A DNA stretch of 64,000 bases. It comes from Candidatus Omnitrophota bacterium. Its GTDB lineage: Bacteria; Omnitrophota; Gorgyraeia; Duberdicusellales; 4484-171. Positions 3,202-53,000 of this stretch are shown here, in pieces (position 1 is the first letter of the stretch; every line of letters starts with the position of its first letter). The DNA lies in assembly GCA_003154195.1 (NCBI GenBank), contig PMCS01000030.1, forward strand, positions 123,446 to 187,445. Direction: 5' to 3'. A program made the translations under genes and the position numbers. Below the pieces are notes generated by a model. That model made no database searches, was not told the DNA's origin, and saw only the letters and a list, made by a program, of their open reading frames with translations.

Positions 3202-4284
3202 ATGGAAAATAATCACCGAGGAATAATTTTAAATTATAAGAAATATCTGCCGGTTAGCGATAAGACTCCGATCGTTACTTTGCGGGAGGGTAATACTCCG
3301 CTTATTTCTGCCCCGGTGCTTTCCGCTTTTTGCGGCAAAAACGTTAAGGTGTATCTTAAATACGAAGGCCTCAATCCTACCGGTTCGTTTAAAGACAGGG
3401 GGATGACCATGGCGATATCCAAGGCCAAAGAAGAGGGTGCTGGCGCCGTGATCTGCGCTTCTACGGGGAACACTTCCGCTTCCGCCGCGGCGTATAGTGC
3501 CAGGGCCGGCATAAAGTGTATCGTGGTGATACCGCAGGGCGCGATTGCCCTGGGAAAGCTTGCTCAGGCGATGATCCATGGGGCTAAAGTTGTCGCCGTC
3601 CAGGGTAATTTTGACGATGCCCTGAGAATTGTCTGTGAACTTTCGGAAAAATATAAAATATGCTTGGTGAATTCCATAAATCCCTACCGTATCGAAGGCC
3701 AGAAAACTGCGGCTTTTGAGATTTGCGATGATCTGGGCGCGCCGCCGCATTACCATATCTTGCCGGTGGGTAACGCCGGGAATATCACGGCTTATTGGAA
3801 AGGCTATAAAGAATACTACGCGCATGGGAAAACAGCCTATTTACCGCACATGTTCGGTTTTCAGGCCAAAGGCTCATGCCCGATTGTCAAGGGTAAGCCG
3901 GTTAAGAATCCCCACACCATTGCTACAGCGATAAAAATCGGCAATCCCGCCAGCTGGCAGAAAGCCGTGGAAGCGAGAGATGAATCTGGGGGGATTATTT
4001 CCGCGGTCAGCGATAGCGAGATTCTGGCGGCTTATAAAGTTTTAGCGGCTCGGGAAGGAGTTTTCGCGGAGCCGGCTTCCGCGGCATCCGTGGCGGGGCT
4101 GCTTAAACTGGCTAAAGAAGGGTTCTTTAAAACCCATAAGACTAAAGAGATGAAAGAGACGGTTGTTGTCTGCACCCTTACCGGCCATGGCCTTAAAGAC
4201 CCCGAGATAGTAATAAAAAATATAAAATACCCGCCGATTGTCCCCGCAAAAATAGAAGCGGTTATGAAAGCTGCGAGGATGTAA
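3202..4284 (+). CDS. thrC: threonine synthase
   Basis: PLP-fold motifs [10 protein letters not shown] and ASTGNTSAS. The ORF track starts at GTG 3184; ATG 3202 is the preferred start. Confidence 0.9.
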
Positions 4285-7948: not shown

Positions 7949-9292
7949 ATGCCTTACATCCTAAACACCGAAGCCGACATCAAGGAAATGCTTAAAGCGA
8001 TAGGGTTAAATTCGCTCGATGAGCTTTTCCGCCGGTTGCCCGGGCAAATCAGATTAAAAGAACCGCTGAAGATCGCCGCCGGCCTCAGCGAGTATCAAGT
8101 TAAAAGCGCTGTTGCTGCTTTGGCGGCAAAAAACACCCCGGTCGATGGTTTTAATTCTTTTTTAGGCGCGGGTTGTTATGACCACTATATACCTGCGGCA
8201 TTACCGTCGATAATTTCGCGTTCAGAATTTGTTACCGCTTATACTCCCTATCAGGCGGAAGCCTCTCAGGGGTCTTTGCAGGCGATTTATGAGTATCAAA
8301 GCTATATCTGTCTTTTGACGGGCATGGATGTTGCCAATGCTTCGATGTTTGACGGCGCTTCCAGTATGGCGGAAGCGGCGTTGATGGCTTTGCGCATAAC
8401 CGGCAGGGATAAAATAGTTGTTTCCGGATCAATCCATCCCGAATTCCGGCAAACCTTAAAAACATATTTATCCGGTTTTGATTTCACGATAAAAAACGTC
8501 GGCTTTGATGAGCATGGTTTTGTCGATACCGGAAGCTTAAACGAGGCTATTGATGGCCGGTCGGCGTGTTTTATCGCGCAGAGCCCTAATTTTTTCGGGT
8601 TAATCGAAGACGCGGCAAAAATCGGCAGGATGATTAAGGAGAAGGGAGCCATTTTCATTATGGTTGCCAATCCTTTGTCTCTGGCGATTTTAAATGACCC
8701 GGCTTCCCTGGGCGTGGATATTTTTTGCGGCGACGGCCAGCCTTTAGGCGGAGCGCTGAATTTCGGCGGCCCTGCTTTCGGCATTCTGGCGACGCGAAAC
8801 GAATATTTGCGCCAGTTGCCGGGAAGGATCGTCGGTAAGACTACCGACCGGCAGGGGAAAGAAGCGTATTGCCTTACGATGCAGGCCAGAGAACAGCATA
8901 TCCGGAGAGAAAAAGCGACCAGTAATATTTGTTCCAACCAATCGCTTAACGCCATCGGCGCGGCGGTTTATCTTTCCCTTATGGGTAAAGAAGGGTTGAC
9001 CGGCGCGGCGCTGAGATCTTTAGAAATGGCGCGGTATCTTCATGAGTGTTTAAAGAATGTAGGAAAAGTTAAAATTAAATTTTCATCGCGATTTTTTAAC
9101 GAGTTTGTCTGGGAAATCGAAGGCGCAAAAAAAATTGTAAAGAAACTTTATAAAAAAAGAATAATCGCCGGTTTTCTTTTAGGCGAATTCTATCCCAAAT
9201 TAAAAAATTGTATTTTGAGTTGTTGCACTGAGAAAAAAAGTAAAGGCGATATTGATAATTTTATTGAAACATTGAAAAATGTAATTTGTTGA
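7949..9292 (+). CDS. gcvPA: glycine dehydrogenase (decarboxylating) subunit 1
   Basis: GDC-P N-terminal subunit signature. It follows gcvH in the operon. Confidence 0.9.
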   Translation: MPYILNTEADIKEMLKAIGLNSLDELFRRLPGQIRLKEPLKIAAGLSEYQVKSAVAALAAKNTPVDGFNSFLGAGCYDHYIPAALPSIISRSEFVTAYTPYQAEASQGSLQAIYEYQSYICLLTGMDVANASMFDGASSMAEAALMALRITGRDKIVVSGSIHPEFRQTLKTYLSGFDFTIKNVGFDEHGFVDTGSLNEAIDGRSACFIAQSPNFFGLIEDAAKIGRMIKEKGAIFIMVANPLSLAILNDPASLGVDIFCGDGQPLGGALNFGGPAFGILATRNEYLRQLPGRIVGKTTDRQGKEAYCLTMQAREQHIRREKATSNICSNQSLNAIGAAVYLSLMGKEGLTGAALRSLEMARYLHECLKNVGKVKIKFSSRFFNEFVWEIEGAKKIVKKLYKKRIIAGFLLGEFYPKLKNCILSCCTEKKSKGDIDNFIETLKNVIC

Positions 9293-42912: not shown

Positions 42913-43028
42913 TAAAGCATTGTAGCAAATTTAGAGTTTGCCGCAATGAAATAAAATATTTCATAGTTTGCCGGTTGTTTGGTATAATTGCTAAGGAAAT
43001 AAAAACCGGTATAAATACATTTTCAATT

Positions 43029-43118
43029 GGAGAGGTGGTCGAGTTGGTTTAAGGCGCCGGTCTCGAAAACCGGAGTCCGACTTATGTTGGACCGTGAGTT
43101 CAAATCTCACCCTCTCCG
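43029..43118 (+). tRNA. tRNA-Ser (anticodon CGA)
   Basis: Acceptor stem GGAGAGG/CCTCTCC, anticodon loop CTCGAAA, long variable arm and T-arm GTGAG-TTCAAAT-CTCAC. No CCA is encoded. Confidence 0.85.
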
Positions 43119-43282
43119 TTTTTTGCTTTGCAAAAAACGGAAAAGTCTCGCCCGCCAAAATTGTAAAACAATTTTGGCGAGACGGACTCTCCGCAAAAGT
43201 TTGCTACCGTTCGCTCAGACAAATTATGGCGAGATATTGTTCTTCAAAGCCGGGCGTAGAAAATTGAAGAAAATGCTTTTCT

Positions 43283-44416
43283 ATGTTTGAGCGGAAGGGA
43301 ATTAAAATTATTGATGCGCGAATGAAAAACATAGTTAAAGGCAATTCAACAAAAGTTATTTTAATAGCGCTTGGCGTGCTTTTCGTTGCTTCCATTCTGG
43401 TCGGTATCCCAATGCAAATGGTTATGGCCATTCATAAAGCGGCGGCCATAATATGGGAGGAGAAGAATTTATCTCATGGAATCGATGGCTATGTTTTAGA
43501 AGCACATGGAAATAGTCTGGTCGCTTTTGATCTTAACAATAAAAGCGCCCATATTGTAAAAGCTGTGCCGAAAGAATCATTTTCTGATGGATGGCGCATT
43601 TTTGATGTAACGGGGCCAAGCAGAGATGGGAAAATAATTTACCTCTTAACGAATCCATGGAATAAACAAACTAATTCATGGGATGATCACGCTGTATGCG
43701 CATGCGTGCTTTGAATGTGTGGTCTCCAAGGTTTGGATGATATTGTTTTGGCTGACAAATTTAATGTTGGATACGACACGACGCAACATTTATCAATTTC
43801 GCCCGATGGAAAATTGTTAGCGACGTTGTTCCATCGAGAAAAACAGAAAGATTCAAGCAGCGGAAGGGGTTCTGAAGCTGGTGTTTTGGAAATATTCCGC
43901 GTCCCCTCAATGGAAAAGGTTAAAGAAATTTCCTCTGTAGCTGATGGGAATATCTCTTGGTTTCCTGACAGCTCTTCAATTCTTTTTACCATGCCGGAAG
44001 GTAAGCGCAGTGTTATTAGAAAATTAGAAATAGGATCAGGAAAAATATTAAGTTTCAATCAAGGCATGTATCAACGAATATCTCCCGATGGTTCCAAGAT
44101 GGCTTATCTCGATTTAGAAAATAATCATTGGGATTTAAAAATAAGGAATTTAGACAATAAGGGGTCTATCCGAAGCCCTTTAACAAAAAAAGATGAAATA
44201 ATCGGTATTATTGGCATGGTTGACGCGAATCGAATTTTGTATGTTGGTGTTACAACCGGTATGCTTCCATCCAAGATCCAAAATGGATCCATATCATTAA
44301 AAATTGCGGATGCAGCGAAGGGAATGTTCGAGACTCTTCATGTATTTGAGGATGAAAATTGTGGCGGCTATTCATATGCGATAAATGAAGAAGTTAGTTA
44401 TGGAAATATTGATTAG
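43283..44416 (+). pseudogene. TolB-like beta-propeller (PD40 repeat) protein interrupted by an in-frame TGA at 43712-43714
   Basis: ORFs 43283..43714 and 43715..44416 share a reading frame. PD40-like motifs (ISPDGKLLA, ISPDGSKMAY) occur in both halves. It is a paralog of the 47625..48569 product. Confidence 0.5.
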
Positions 44417-44837
44417 AATATTTTAGCTATTTTGAATAGAACACATTTAGCTATAGGGTTTGGCTTTTGTCCATGGCTACTCGCCATTTTTGCCGATGGC
44501 AAGAATGATAAAACTCCGCGTTAGACTTTTGCCTTGTAAGAAACCCTGACCCAAATAAGGTATCCAGATTTTTTCCTTCCCGTTTGGCGCGAAGCTTTGA
44601 ATCAGTTAAGCCAGATTCCCGAATTATTAATGTGCGAGTTAGTTTTTCCCTCAAACCGCTAATGGCAACGCTAATTTTGAAAATTACGACTACCTTACTT
44701 TTGATATTACGGCGATGAACGACGTTAGCCCCAAGCAGGTGGAGGAGATGCTTATTGGGGAACGCCCTCGTTGAGCCGCCTTCACATTAGACTATCTTCG
44801 CAAACATTCTTATCTTATTGTCTTCGTGTATTGTATT

Positions 44838-44880
44838 TTTTTATCCTATTTTTTGTTGCAATTGCAATAAAAAATAGGAT
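44838..44880. promoter_or_regulatory. 40-bp palindrome containing TTGCAATTGCAA (candidate operator)
   Basis: ATCCTATTTTTTGTTGCAATTGCAATAAAAAATAGGAT sits directly upstream of the PaaX-like gene. A related palindrome is at 45838-45880. Confidence 0.45.
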
Positions 44881-44889
44881 AATAATTTT

Positions 44890-45732
44890 ATGAAAAAAAC
44901 CATTAATAAAATTGGTTATGCGCTTGTTGATACCGCAGGGGTTGCCAAGAATGTTCTACGGGACGGGTGGGAAGGTGTTTGTTATTTATTGTGGCTGGTT
45001 AATCCGCCTACGATGAGCAAGGCAATGTTCGGCCCGCAGATGCGGGAGTTGTATTCTTATAAGTCGCTTTATCAAAGAATGGACGGTTTATACGAGAAAG
45101 GTTATATCGGGCGCATCGGCCGGCACAAAAAATTTTCGTTTTTTTTCAAAAAAGGATTCCGTTATAATTTTCTCGATGATTATTTGGCGTTAAAAATAGA
45201 AAAATTCTACAAACCTTGGGACAGGAAATGGCGGCTTCTTATTTATGATATTCCTCAGAAAAACAGCCCCAAGCGGGAACAGTTCCGGAGGCATATTAAA
45301 AACCTGGGGTTCGGTATGTCCCAGAAAAGCTGTTGGGTTAATGCTTATGATTTTACCTACCCGATTGATGAGTTTTGCCGCCAGAATAAGATGAGTGATT
45401 GCATTTGTTCGTATGAAGGGGCATTTTTGACCGGGGAGAATATAGATACGATGGTGGAGCGGGTTTGGAAAATAAGCGATTTTTTCTCTGTTTACGAAAC
45501 GATAATATCGATGGCCGATGGTTATCTGCGCGCGATTAAAACACAACAAATATCATTTAAAGATTACTATGTGAAATATTGCGAGCTATTTGCGCAATAC
45601 AAAAATGCCTTATTACGCGATCCTTTCCTGCCCAAAGAATTTACGCCGCTGTGGCAAAAAAGAGATCTTGCCGAAAATAGATTAAGTATTTTACTCCGCG
45701 CGCTTTTTAAAGAATGCGGCATGAGTCTATAA
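44890..45732 (+). CDS. PaaX-family-like transcriptional regulator
   Basis: The RKWRLLIYDIPQKNSPKREQFRRHIKNLGFGMSQKSCWVN region resembles the PaaX middle (Cas2-like) domain. The N-terminal region is wHTH-like. Confidence 0.5.
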   Translation: MKKTINKIGYALVDTAGVAKNVLRDGWEGVCYLLWLVNPPTMSKAMFGPQMRELYSYKSLYQRMDGLYEKGYIGRIGRHKKFSFFFKKGFRYNFLDDYLALKIEKFYKPWDRKWRLLIYDIPQKNSPKREQFRRHIKNLGFGMSQKSCWVNAYDFTYPIDEFCRQNKMSDCICSYEGAFLTGENIDTMVERVWKISDFFSVYETIISMADGYLRAIKTQQISFKDYYVKYCELFAQYKNALLRDPFLPKEFTPLWQKRDLAENRLSILLRALFKECGMSL

Positions 45733-45837
45733 AAATTACACTACCCCCGCGCTAAAACTACTTTTTTTATCCCCAGTATCGCAAGGACTTAAATTACTTT
45801 ACTGACGTCTTTATGAAAAAGGGAAAACATTATCCTT

Positions 45838-45880
45838 AAATCTTGTTGCAATTGCAACAAGAAAATAGGATGAAAAGAGG
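45838..45880. promoter_or_regulatory. palindrome CTTGTTGCAATTGCAACAAG...AAAATAGGAT, related to 44838-44880
   Basis: It shares the GTTGCAATTGCAA core and the AAAATAGGAT tail with the upstream palindrome. Confidence 0.45.
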
Positions 45881-45912
45881 TTGATGAATTTGTGAGGAAG
45901 GCGATAAAACAA

Positions 45913-45942
45913 AAAAGAGCCGAAGAAATCCGGCTCTTTTTT
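45913..45942 (+). terminator. terminator-like hairpin AAAAGAGCCGAAGAAATCCGGCTCTTTTTT
   Basis: GC stem followed by a T-tract. Confidence 0.45.
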
Positions 45943-46158
45943 GTTGATGATGCGCGGGGTGTCCGCCGTATCGCATGCGGCATGTGAACTCGGGGAGATC
46001 TCGCCAAGCGAAGCTTGGCGGAGGACTTGCCACTTGTCTCTCCGGTAAGGCCGGAGAGGGTGTCCTAAGGATGCTGCAAGTGCCAATAATGTGCTAGCCA
46101 TTTGCTGAACGATAAACCTTCCGTTACATTTCAAACCGATTGAATTAAAAGAAAACCA

Positions 46159-46240
46159 TGCGCGGGGTGGGAGTTGAACCCACATGGGGGTTACCCATAC
46201 GCTTCTGAGGCGTACGCGTCTGCCATTTCGCCACCCGCGC
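46159..46240 (-). tRNA. tRNA-Leu (anticodon CAG)
   Basis: The reverse complement GCGCGGGTGGCGAAATGGCAGACGCGTACGCCTCAGAAGCGTATGGGTAACCCCCATGTGGGTTCAACTCCCACCCCGCGCA aligns well with bacterial tRNA-Leu, including the long variable arm. Confidence 0.85.
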
Positions 46241-46289: not shown

Positions 46290-46519
46290 AAAAATAAAAA
46301 CTTTTGATATTTTAAGGATAGGTTGCAAACCTGTTCTTACCGGAATTTATATTTTCCTAAATCCGCCGGAGGCGGATTTGGGGATAAAATAACCCCGCGG
46401 TGTTTCGCGGGGTTATTTTATCAATGCTATTATATTTTATTACCTTTGTCAACTAAATATGCTATAATCCCTAATCGGTAAACGCCGCAAAAGCGCTCTT
46501 CCGGTCAGGGGATTATCGT

Positions 46520-52869: not shown

Positions 52870-53000
52870 CTGAAGTTCGCCTTCGCCAAGACTTCGGCGA
52901 GATTCCTCCGAAGCTCGAAGAGCGAAGGAGAACTTCGGCGAAATCTCTCCGAAGCTAAAAAAAAGCGAAGGAGGACTTCGGAGAAATGAAGCTATATGTC
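52870..53000. repeat. three roughly 40-bp tandem direct repeats (CTTCGGCGAGATTCCTCCGAAGCT... variants)
   Basis: Each unit carries a GAAG...CTTC hairpin. A family A-like palindrome GGTTATTTTTTACGCAGTAAAAAATAACC lies at 52711-52740. Confidence 0.5.

Follow-up and report, generated by a model that had tools for sequence, protein, structure and literature searches.

A PaaX-family gene bracketed by two copies of a bipartite palindrome in an Omnitrophota genome, and the same arrangement across its family

Why should a regulator gene lie between two copies of one long palindrome? The question is raised by a locus in Candidatus Omnitrophota bacterium (GenBank assembly GCA_003154195.1, contig PMCS01000030.1, positions 123,446 to 187,445), a stretch of 64,000 nucleotides (nt) hereafter called the window, in which the gene for a 280-residue PaaX-family protein is found between an upstream palindrome (A) and a related downstream palindrome (B). 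A sequence-only reading of this DNA had offered two answers, namely an autoregulated winged helix-turn-helix (wHTH) regulator with its operator, and a small cassette delimited by direct repeats beside tRNA genes. By comparing homologous loci, we found such bracketing, by two copies of a palindrome that is bipartite and specific to the lineage, in about two thirds of the family. The best overall explanation, which we consider probable though well short of certain, is that the gene encodes a homodimeric PaaX-type transcription factor and that the two palindromes are its binding sites. What is new is the family-wide bracketing by a lineage-specific bipartite dyad of about 40 bp; a palindromic autoregulatory operator is in itself ordinary and the protein family is known. 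In the literature that could be searched, neither the bracketing arrangement nor PaaX-like proteins in the phyla concerned (Omnitrophota and Patescibacteria) were found described.

Palindrome A spans 42 nt (44841-44882) with arms of 21 nt each, in which 20 of the 21 pairs match according to both direct reading and a repeat finder; over its wider extent (Table 1) the arms measure 24 nt with 92% complementarity. It had been described as a perfect 40-bp palindrome 10 bp upstream of the start codon. The palindrome is real, but it is near-perfect rather than perfect, with a single G·T mismatch (pair G44855/T44868), and it ends 7 nt before the ATG, or 9 nt when counted from the end of the ATCCT...AGGAT part (44843-44880). 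Its outer arms, ATCCT (44843-44847) and AGGAT (44876-44880), enclose an inner core TTGCAA/TTGCAA (44856-44867), and the dyad centre falls between 44861 and 44862. Palindrome B, the dyad centre of which is 990 bp from that of A, has a perfect palindrome as its inner core (TCTTGTTGCAATTGCAACAAGA, 45841-45862) and pairing outer arms (ATCCT/AGGAT), with 4-5 unpaired nt between core and outer arms. It had been placed about 105 bp downstream with the same core and tail as A; the core and tail hold, but the palindrome starts 99 nt, and its core 108 nt, after the stop codon. Common to both palindromes are the layout ATCCT-N28/30-AGGAT (N28 in A, N30 in B) around a TTGCAATTGCAA core, and TTGTTGCAATTGCAA together with a AAAATAGGAT tail; when read on the reverse strand, B aligns with A via a GGATAAT element. 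In the window, the 12-mer TTGCAATTGCAA occurs only at these two palindromes, as does ATCCT-N24-30-AGGAT, and no further full sites were found. Looser core matches at 8035 and 23265 are both intragenic and without outer arms. As single strands, A and B fold far above shuffled sequences (z-scores in Table 1).

The 280-residue protein is a PaaX-family regulator with a wHTH domain (residues ~24-86), a Cas2-like centre (~108-180) and a helical C-terminal domain (~185-275). Pfam searches, as the sequence-only reading had proposed, identified PaaX_M (PF20803) at residues 108-180 with E = 1e-17 (64.4 bits against a cut-off of 24) and, marginally, PaaX_C (PF08223; 22.4 bits against a cut-off of 22, E = 1.7e-4), while the N-terminal PaaX model of Pfam gave no hit. 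A subfamily profile built from 18 members matched E. coli PaaX (PDB 8A39) at 2.5e-13 over residues 48-260, of which 48-100 align to its wHTH, and the MecI/BlaI wHTH at E = 3.6e-4 over residues 24-76. In the AlphaFold2 model (predicted local distance difference test score, pLDDT, 84.5) the wHTH region contains helices at 41-52 and 57-70 and a β-hairpin at 73-86. With this model, Foldseek returned 8A39 as best match (8e-10, 267 columns), followed by Rv0674 (3kfw) and 3l09, and the middle domain also matched Cas2 structures. The profile and fold matches thus identify a wHTH although the Pfam N-terminal model is silent, and they also back the marginal PaaX_C assignment. The protein is not an ortholog of PaaX proper: the NCBIfam PaaX equivalog TIGR02277 is matched at 55.3 bits, below its cut-off of 264.55, identity to 8A39 is about 15%, and no paa catabolic genes were found among the window neighbors examined, namely an Rce1-like protease, tRNAs, PD40 β-propeller proteins and an AEC transporter. 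The neighboring gene's homologs assign the host to Candidatus Omnitrophota.

Homologous and related loci, from the close subfamily as well as from distant members, were fetched and given L-numbers. Close full-length relatives amount to about 14 cluster representatives (50% identity, E ≤ 1e-30, in a library of 1.8 billion), and at least 1,700 cluster representatives at the same identity share the family core at E ≤ 0.001. Bracketing was scored as the best ungapped segment that 300 bp of upstream flank share with 350 bp of downstream flank. Neighboring genes in the same loci served as control (median 9, 95th percentile 13), and scores above 13 were counted as bracketed. Seven out of the 11 close loci with both flanks exceeded the control 95th percentile (the scores being 16, 23, 13, 46, 11, 22, 40, 20, 8, 32 and 12), and in the low scorers L050 and L052 a degenerate palindrome pair is visible by eye. 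Out of a total of 84 non-redundant family loci from Omnitrophota and Patescibacteria, 54 scored above 13 and 34 above 20, compared to 5 and 2, respectively, of the 157 control genes. Statistics from the window alone are modest, with at least two matches to each short pattern in 6 to 9 of 100 shuffles, but since the same arrangement recurs at homologous loci, chance is untenable as an explanation. Distant family members, mostly proteins of 180-270 residues from Patescibacteria, are bracketed likewise. The upstream copy ends at a median of 26 bp before the start codon, and the downstream copy starts at a median of 23 bp after the stop codon, which it often overlaps. Exactly two copies were found in 45 of 63 loci (429 kb of locus sequence scanned).

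The bracketing palindromes differ in sequence lineage by lineage. The one in L005 and L051 reads TCAAAAAACTCTGCTATAGCAGAGTTT[C/T]TTGA, the downstream copy being a perfect 50-mer, while L008 and L053 have CTTGCTATAGCAAG, and L002 has ATTGCGGCCGCAGT upstream and AATGCGGCCGCAAT downstream. A 46-nt unit is identical at 46/46 positions on both sides of the gene in L006, and L009 has a 43-nt unit as a direct repeat. The dyad of L049 (TGTAATA-N-TCAACGTACGTTGA-N-TATTACA, 40 bp) occurs in three copies.

Some of these loci show further peculiarities. Two of the L049 copies (2836-2877 and 2929-2968) are both upstream and flank a -10-like element, GCTATAAT, and the third (3831-3870) begins at the stop codon. 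In the middle copy the core is degenerate and the outer arms are intact. In two diverged subfamily members, L002 (4122-6556) and L050 (2174-4497), the regulator is situated between folK (HPPK) and panC, its position being kept while the palindrome sequences differ. L025 (2207-4446) contains tandem family paralogs (2334-2888 and 3701-4255), with one dyad in front of both genes but in two variants, which are distinguished by symmetric changes, and the locus looks like a pair of duplicated modules diverging in specificity. The homologs in L005 (~340-480) and L051 (~410-500) are apparently frameshifted near the 5' end, with the family-typical N-terminus (MGRIGKKILYKAKDIGKLLLEEG...) in a different frame from the remainder of the open reading frame, beside a T6 run; pseudogene formation, an error of assembly and programmed frameshifting are all conceivable causes.

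An alignment of 52 copies on the dyad centre showed that the family site is a bipartite dyad, with a median length of 40 bp. Pairing is found in 96-98% of the copies at offsets 1-4 from the centre, dips to 62-69% at a hinge at offsets 7-8, and recovers to 92-98% at offsets 12-19, in the outer arms. In 99% of the copies offset 3 is occupied by G or C, with C at -3 and G at +3, giving a near-universal C-N4-G. Mismatches in the arms are without strand bias (39 G:T versus 31 A:C), which favors a site at the DNA level over a sense-strand RNA hairpin.

The sequence of palindrome A overlaps a σ70-like promoter, consisting of a -35 element TTGCAA (44856-44861), a 16-nt spacer and a -10 element GATAAT (44878-44883). 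As the -10 element ends 6 nt before the ATG, the mRNA would have a very short leader or be leaderless, and most of A would stay untranscribed. This, too, weighs against a sense RNA hairpin, which together with the missing G:U bias led us to reject such a hairpin as the principal function. Overlap between the upstream copy and -35 or extended -10 elements is also seen elsewhere in the close subfamily (window, L003, L006, L008, L009 and L052). On the other side of the gene, beyond B, a hairpin with two fully complementary arms looks like an intrinsic terminator that would close both the regulator unit and, on the opposite strand, the tRNA-Leu unit, and B is consequently placed in the 3' untranslated DNA of the gene, outside any neighbor's promoter. 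A mirror-image promoter-like element on the minus strand at B faces the 3' end of the gene, so that it could drive antisense transcription.

Table 1. Coordinates of the features of the locus (window positions unless a locus is named) and the basis of each assignment.
Feature	Coordinates	Strand	Basis or description
Palindrome A, upstream presumptive operator	44838..44885	.	bipartite; repeat finder, fold z = -6.5
Putative σ70-like promoter within palindrome A	44856..44883	+	consensus scan only
Gene for 280-aa PaaX-family protein	44890..45732	+	open reading frame, Pfam, profile search, AlphaFold2, Foldseek
Promoter-like TTGCAA-17-GATAAT in/beside palindrome B	45829..45857	-	consensus match only
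Palindrome B, downstream presumptive operator copy	45832..45871	.	ATCCT-N30-AGGAT; repeat finder, fold z = -4.4
Bidirectional terminator-like hairpin	45908..45945	.	AACAAAAAAGAGCCG-N8-CGGCTCTTTTTTGTT; 15-nt arms, 100% complementary
tRNA-Ser/tRNA-Leu regions compared	window 43028-46240; L130 4566-4910; L131 4734-4932; L132 67-265; L129 870-2300		

PaaX is the phenylacetyl-CoA-responsive repressor of the paa catabolic genes in E. coli and Pseudomonas. The three-domain architecture of wHTH, Cas2-like and helical C-terminal domains is common to PaaX (8A39, 3L09) and the window protein. In E. coli, the PaaX box is TGATTC-N27-GAATCA, 39 bp in all, the protein represses its own Px promoter by steric hindrance, and its Cas2-like domain is a dimerisation module (PMC9493321). 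Long dyad operators with outer half-sites of 5-6 bp some 27-30 bp apart are thus found in both systems, an agreement in geometry only, and the occlusion of its own promoter by PaaX has its counterpart here in the overlap of site A with promoter-like sequence. Besides the low identity and the missing paa genes, several differences were found. The middle of the site is a conserved palindrome here, compared to N27 in the E. coli box; the Cas2 Asp is kept, whereas E. coli PaaX carries Glu in the corresponding place; the hosts are Omnitrophota and Patescibacteria; and, above all, the site recurs in a second copy just after the gene, which is not described for paaX.

Given the promoter overlap and a geometry like that of the E. 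coli PaaX box, autorepression is the best reading of site A. A PaaX-type dimer would sit on each ~40-bp dyad, with its two wHTH domains contacting the outer arms ~15-19 bp on either side of the centre and the Cas2-like dimerisation module over the inner core. When bound at A, the dimer would cover the -35 and -10 elements of its own promoter and exclude RNA polymerase, resulting in negative autoregulation, and a small ligand at the C-terminal domain would relieve DNA binding. The earlier suggestion of an autoregulated wHTH regulator agrees with the PaaX_M match, the profile matches to 8A39 and MecI, the fold, the promoter overlap and the PaaX-box geometry. Its operator reading accounts for site A and leaves the downstream copy unexplained.

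One possible function of the downstream copy is that of an operator for the next gene. We rejected this as a general explanation, as the downstream neighbor is convergent in 22 of 42 loci (co-directional in the other 20). It does fit L002, where the next gene is panC, but in the window and in L050 the downstream copy sits before a terminator. The neighbors of the homologs are unrelated housekeeping genes, e.g. panC, recO, recG, rnc, ligA, ftsZ and pheT. In L022 (4311-6640), recG, a gene convergent with the regulator, has a third dyad copy ~70 bp upstream of it and is thus itself bracketed by two copies; some family members may control a neighboring gene as well. Site B of the window, between stop codon and terminator, would instead act on the same gene. 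Either a contact between the dimers at A and B would loop out the 990-bp gene and sharpen repression, or B would be a roadblock to polymerases coming from the convergent side or from an antisense promoter inside B.

Looping repressors are well known, with phage lambda cI bridging OL and OR, and with the auxiliary operators of lac, gal and deo. These systems resemble the present one in that related operators flank the repressor gene at distances of some hundreds to some thousands of bp from each other, and repressors bound there can touch and strengthen autoregulation. The lambda repressor, however, belongs to another protein family and its flanking arrays of 17-bp sites control outward promoters of other genes, whereas single ~40-bp dyads lie tight against the open reading frame here and looping is our suggestion. 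Another parallel is offered by the RAYT genes (REP-associated tyrosine transposases), which are flanked by cognate repetitive extragenic palindromic (REP) sequences occurring in tens to hundreds per genome. In both cases a single-copy gene has palindromes on either side that are specific to the lineage and vary together with the encoded protein. In contrast to REPs, usually only the two flanking copies were seen in the locus sequences scanned for the present family (45 of 63 loci), with none elsewhere in the 64 kb of the window, and the protein is not a Y1/HUH transposase according to Pfam and NCBIfam.

Several findings weigh against the binding-site reading. Between the two copies of a locus, 31 symmetric double changes were observed where about 2 would be expected from independent change, and in L041, L126 and L040 only the core is common to both copies, the outer arms being self-complementary within each copy but peculiar to it. 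Perfect palindromes of 40-54 bp, which exceed the usual operator in length, also occur. In the window itself, the spacing of the outer arms differs by copy (28 nt in A, 30 nt in B), which one rigid dimer must tolerate, and the promoter at A is called from its match to the consensus only. Across the family, -10-like hexamers by the upstream copies are in a weak, about two-fold excess on the gene-facing side, and a sharp conserved -10 offset relative to the dyad was looked for and not found. Nor does the motif stand upstream of any other gene in the window; the sequence-only reading had named enrichment upstream of other genes, genome-wide, as the sign of a regulon. This last absence does not refute binding, since flanking its own gene is the pattern of the whole family.

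The symmetric changes are not predicted by one protein reading both sites and indicate either selection or replication-templated correction for self-complementarity. They could mean that the palindromes act mainly as nucleic-acid structures, i.e. as DNA cruciforms or hairpins of single-stranded DNA or RNA that are recognized or processed by the protein, or as lone terminators or insulators on both sides of the gene. Such a view would also suit the long perfect palindromes of several loci, the strong folding of A and B, and the copies in L015, L051 and L014, which look like bidirectional intrinsic terminators in that a GC-rich stem stands between an A-run and a T-run. We nevertheless consider it unlikely. 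Template-switch correction of quasi-palindromes can yield symmetric changes without selection. The arms may be kept matched in this way, the alternative being that their self-complementarity is itself selected, as a cruciform or hairpin. Furthermore, the hinge is poorly paired while core and outer arms are conserved as blocks, the spacers in window B and L049 are non-complementary, and the mismatches lack a G:U-type strand bias. A terminator role for A is contradicted by its polarity, with a T-run before the stem and an A-run after it, and by the separate terminator-like hairpin further downstream. A generic structure would also leave unexplained why the same lineage-specific sequence is found on both sides of the gene.

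The Cas2-like domain allows for a different alternative, in which the protein is an active nuclease directed by its wHTH to the palindromes, where, at the dyad centre, it would make cuts or nicks in DNA or process the transcript of its own gene, in a self-targeting, toxin-like or defense-related role instead of that of a simple repressor. The central domain matches Cas2 models and structures, directly so in weak hits (TIGR01573 at 2.9e-4, scoring 21 bits against a cut-off of 24.5, and PADLOC Cas2 at 5e-6). Sequence hallmarks of Cas2 (Cas2/VapD endonuclease fold) are kept. One is YDIP, in which Asp120, the residue at the catalytic position where the first strand ends, is conserved in at least 90% of 66 diverse members, and another is a G..Q.S.W motif; according to the profile alignment, it is this Asp120 position that carries Glu in E. 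coli PaaX. The dyad centres, with their nearly invariant C-3 and G+3, are short GC-containing palindromes like restriction sites. Opposed to this, the corresponding domain in PaaX serves dimerisation (PMC9493321), and the domain is here fused between a wHTH and a helical domain. No Cas1-like open reading frame or other cas gene, no partner gene, and no CRISPR array (tandem-repeat finder) was found nearby in the window, and no defense-system model other than Cas2 matched the protein. Stable vertical inheritance beside housekeeping genes is likewise atypical of toxin or defense islands, and altogether we regard an active nuclease as quite improbable. Least probable of all appears the mobile or recombining cassette, with the palindromes as its terminal repeats or recombination sites, inserted in a tRNA-flanked hot spot. 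The tight bracketing of the open reading frame is in line with it, as are the varying contexts among distant members, the asymmetric positions common to both copies in L006 and L009, the adjacency of tRNA-Ser and tRNA-Leu without the module in related Omnitrophota, a 12-nt repeat of the tRNA-Leu 3' end at 45950 and a slightly lower GC content across 43800-45800. However, in many orthologous sets the gene is in the same syntenic position, with flanks conserved as much as or more than the gene, and all-against-all blastn of the loci gave only syntenic orthologs and same-organism duplicates, with no near-identical module seen in two different contexts. The two copies are direct repeats in some loci and inverted in others, each is symmetric about its own centre, and the modules occur once per locus instead of in multiple copies. 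Scans with Pfam, NCBIfam and defense models revealed no recombinase or transposase domain in the protein, so that on these grounds the unit does not qualify as an insertion sequence. Only 2 of 62 family loci are associated with tRNAs, and a tRNA integration hot spot as a family property was rejected on this account. The direct-repeat cassette beside tRNAs that the earlier reading had allowed for therefore finds no support as a general explanation.

The binding-site reading is thus the preferred one, and it would have consequences beyond the window. To our knowledge, Omnitrophota and Patescibacteria have small genomes and almost no characterized regulators. For a family of at least 1,700 relatives, the presumptive recognition site would be readable from the gene's own two flanks, and dozens of predicted protein-site pairs would be gained for the study of wHTH specificity. 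Operator copies on both sides of a regulator gene are not part of the textbook picture of PaaX and suggest that compact genomes may commonly resort to looping or insulation. Room for a DNA-structure-dependent or nuclease activity is left by the Cas2 hallmarks that the protein retains and by the way in which the arms co-vary symmetrically. More speculatively, and in our estimation with little likelihood, the PaaX_M-family proteins of Omnitrophota and Patescibacteria would form a hitherto unrecognized class of self-contained bracketed modules, in which the wHTH/Cas2-like protein recognizes, and possibly cuts or remodels, the cruciform-prone ~40-bp palindromes beside its gene, and in which the bracket, not a distant regulon, would be the functional unit. 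If so, the bracket could be a protein-closed DNA loop or an insulator where intergenic regions are very short. It could also be a case of a Cas2-fold protein coupled to palindromic repeats outside CRISPR, with a bearing on the origin of the association between Cas2 and repeats.

The surroundings of the window gene have a history of their own. The related Omnitrophota loci L130-L132 lack the module, and directly upstream of the AEC transporter they have tRNA-Ser(cga) next to tRNA-Leu(cag) on the same strand. The tRNA-Ser of the window is inverted and separated from tRNA-Leu by 3 kb, with a split PD40 gene and the regulator module in between, and in L129 tRNA-Ser is found beyond the AEC transporter. 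Compared to L130-L132, the window stretch has consequently been rearranged or has gained DNA in this lineage, and the tRNA pair appears to be a rearrangement hot spot. A comparison of locus occupancy in related genomes, which had been suggested earlier, thus yields relatives without the module and points to local rearrangement, within the limits that identity to the nearest homologs of the neighboring genes is only about 57% and that the 73%-identical homolog is located on a 1-kb contig that is cut inside the upstream palindrome. At this locus, an insertion or inversion in the past is possible. The rearrangement is a property of this locus and not of the module, since orientation, synteny and tRNA association across the family speak against mobility.

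The PD40 (WD40-like β-propeller) gene (43283-44416, plus strand) is split by a single in-frame TGA (43712-43714) with an ATG directly after it. The resulting open reading frames of 143 and 233 residues are in the same frame, the N-terminal part being without a Pfam hit, and the gene may be a pseudogene or contain a read-through or recoding site. The 12-nt direct repeat (ATGCGCGGGGTG) is located at 45950-45961 and 46158-46169, the latter copy extending into the 3' end of the minus-strand tRNA-Leu(cag). An old attachment or duplication event could have left it behind, or it could be due to chance. The GC-rich spacer of ~200 bp between the two copies, downstream of the tRNA-Leu gene (45950-46157), was considered as a structured RNA and rejected, with no Rfam hit and no significant fold (z = -1.29).

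In and near the locus, only tRNAs reach an Rfam gathering score. For RF03532 (SQ2397, "Cis-regulator of HTH transcription factor"), a match that spans B at 45703-45902 on the minus strand stays below threshold, scoring 32 bits (E = 0.0027) where 100 is the gathering score. It is probably driven by the hairpin of B, the description of the family being suggestive, and the microRNA-like Rfam hits on palindrome A merely reflect its hairpin. Upstream of the AEC transporter gene (46351-46419) there are two consecutive GC-rich hairpins, the second followed by a T-run. Their Rfam hits, to Leu_leader and sRNA-like families, are below threshold, and both are in all probability simple terminators. Lastly, a tandem repeat with a period of 43 (2.3 copies, 82% match, consensus ACTTCGGCGAAATCCCTCCGAAGCTAAAAAAAGCGAAGGAGA) is found at 52891-52987 of the window, with a hairpin in each unit.

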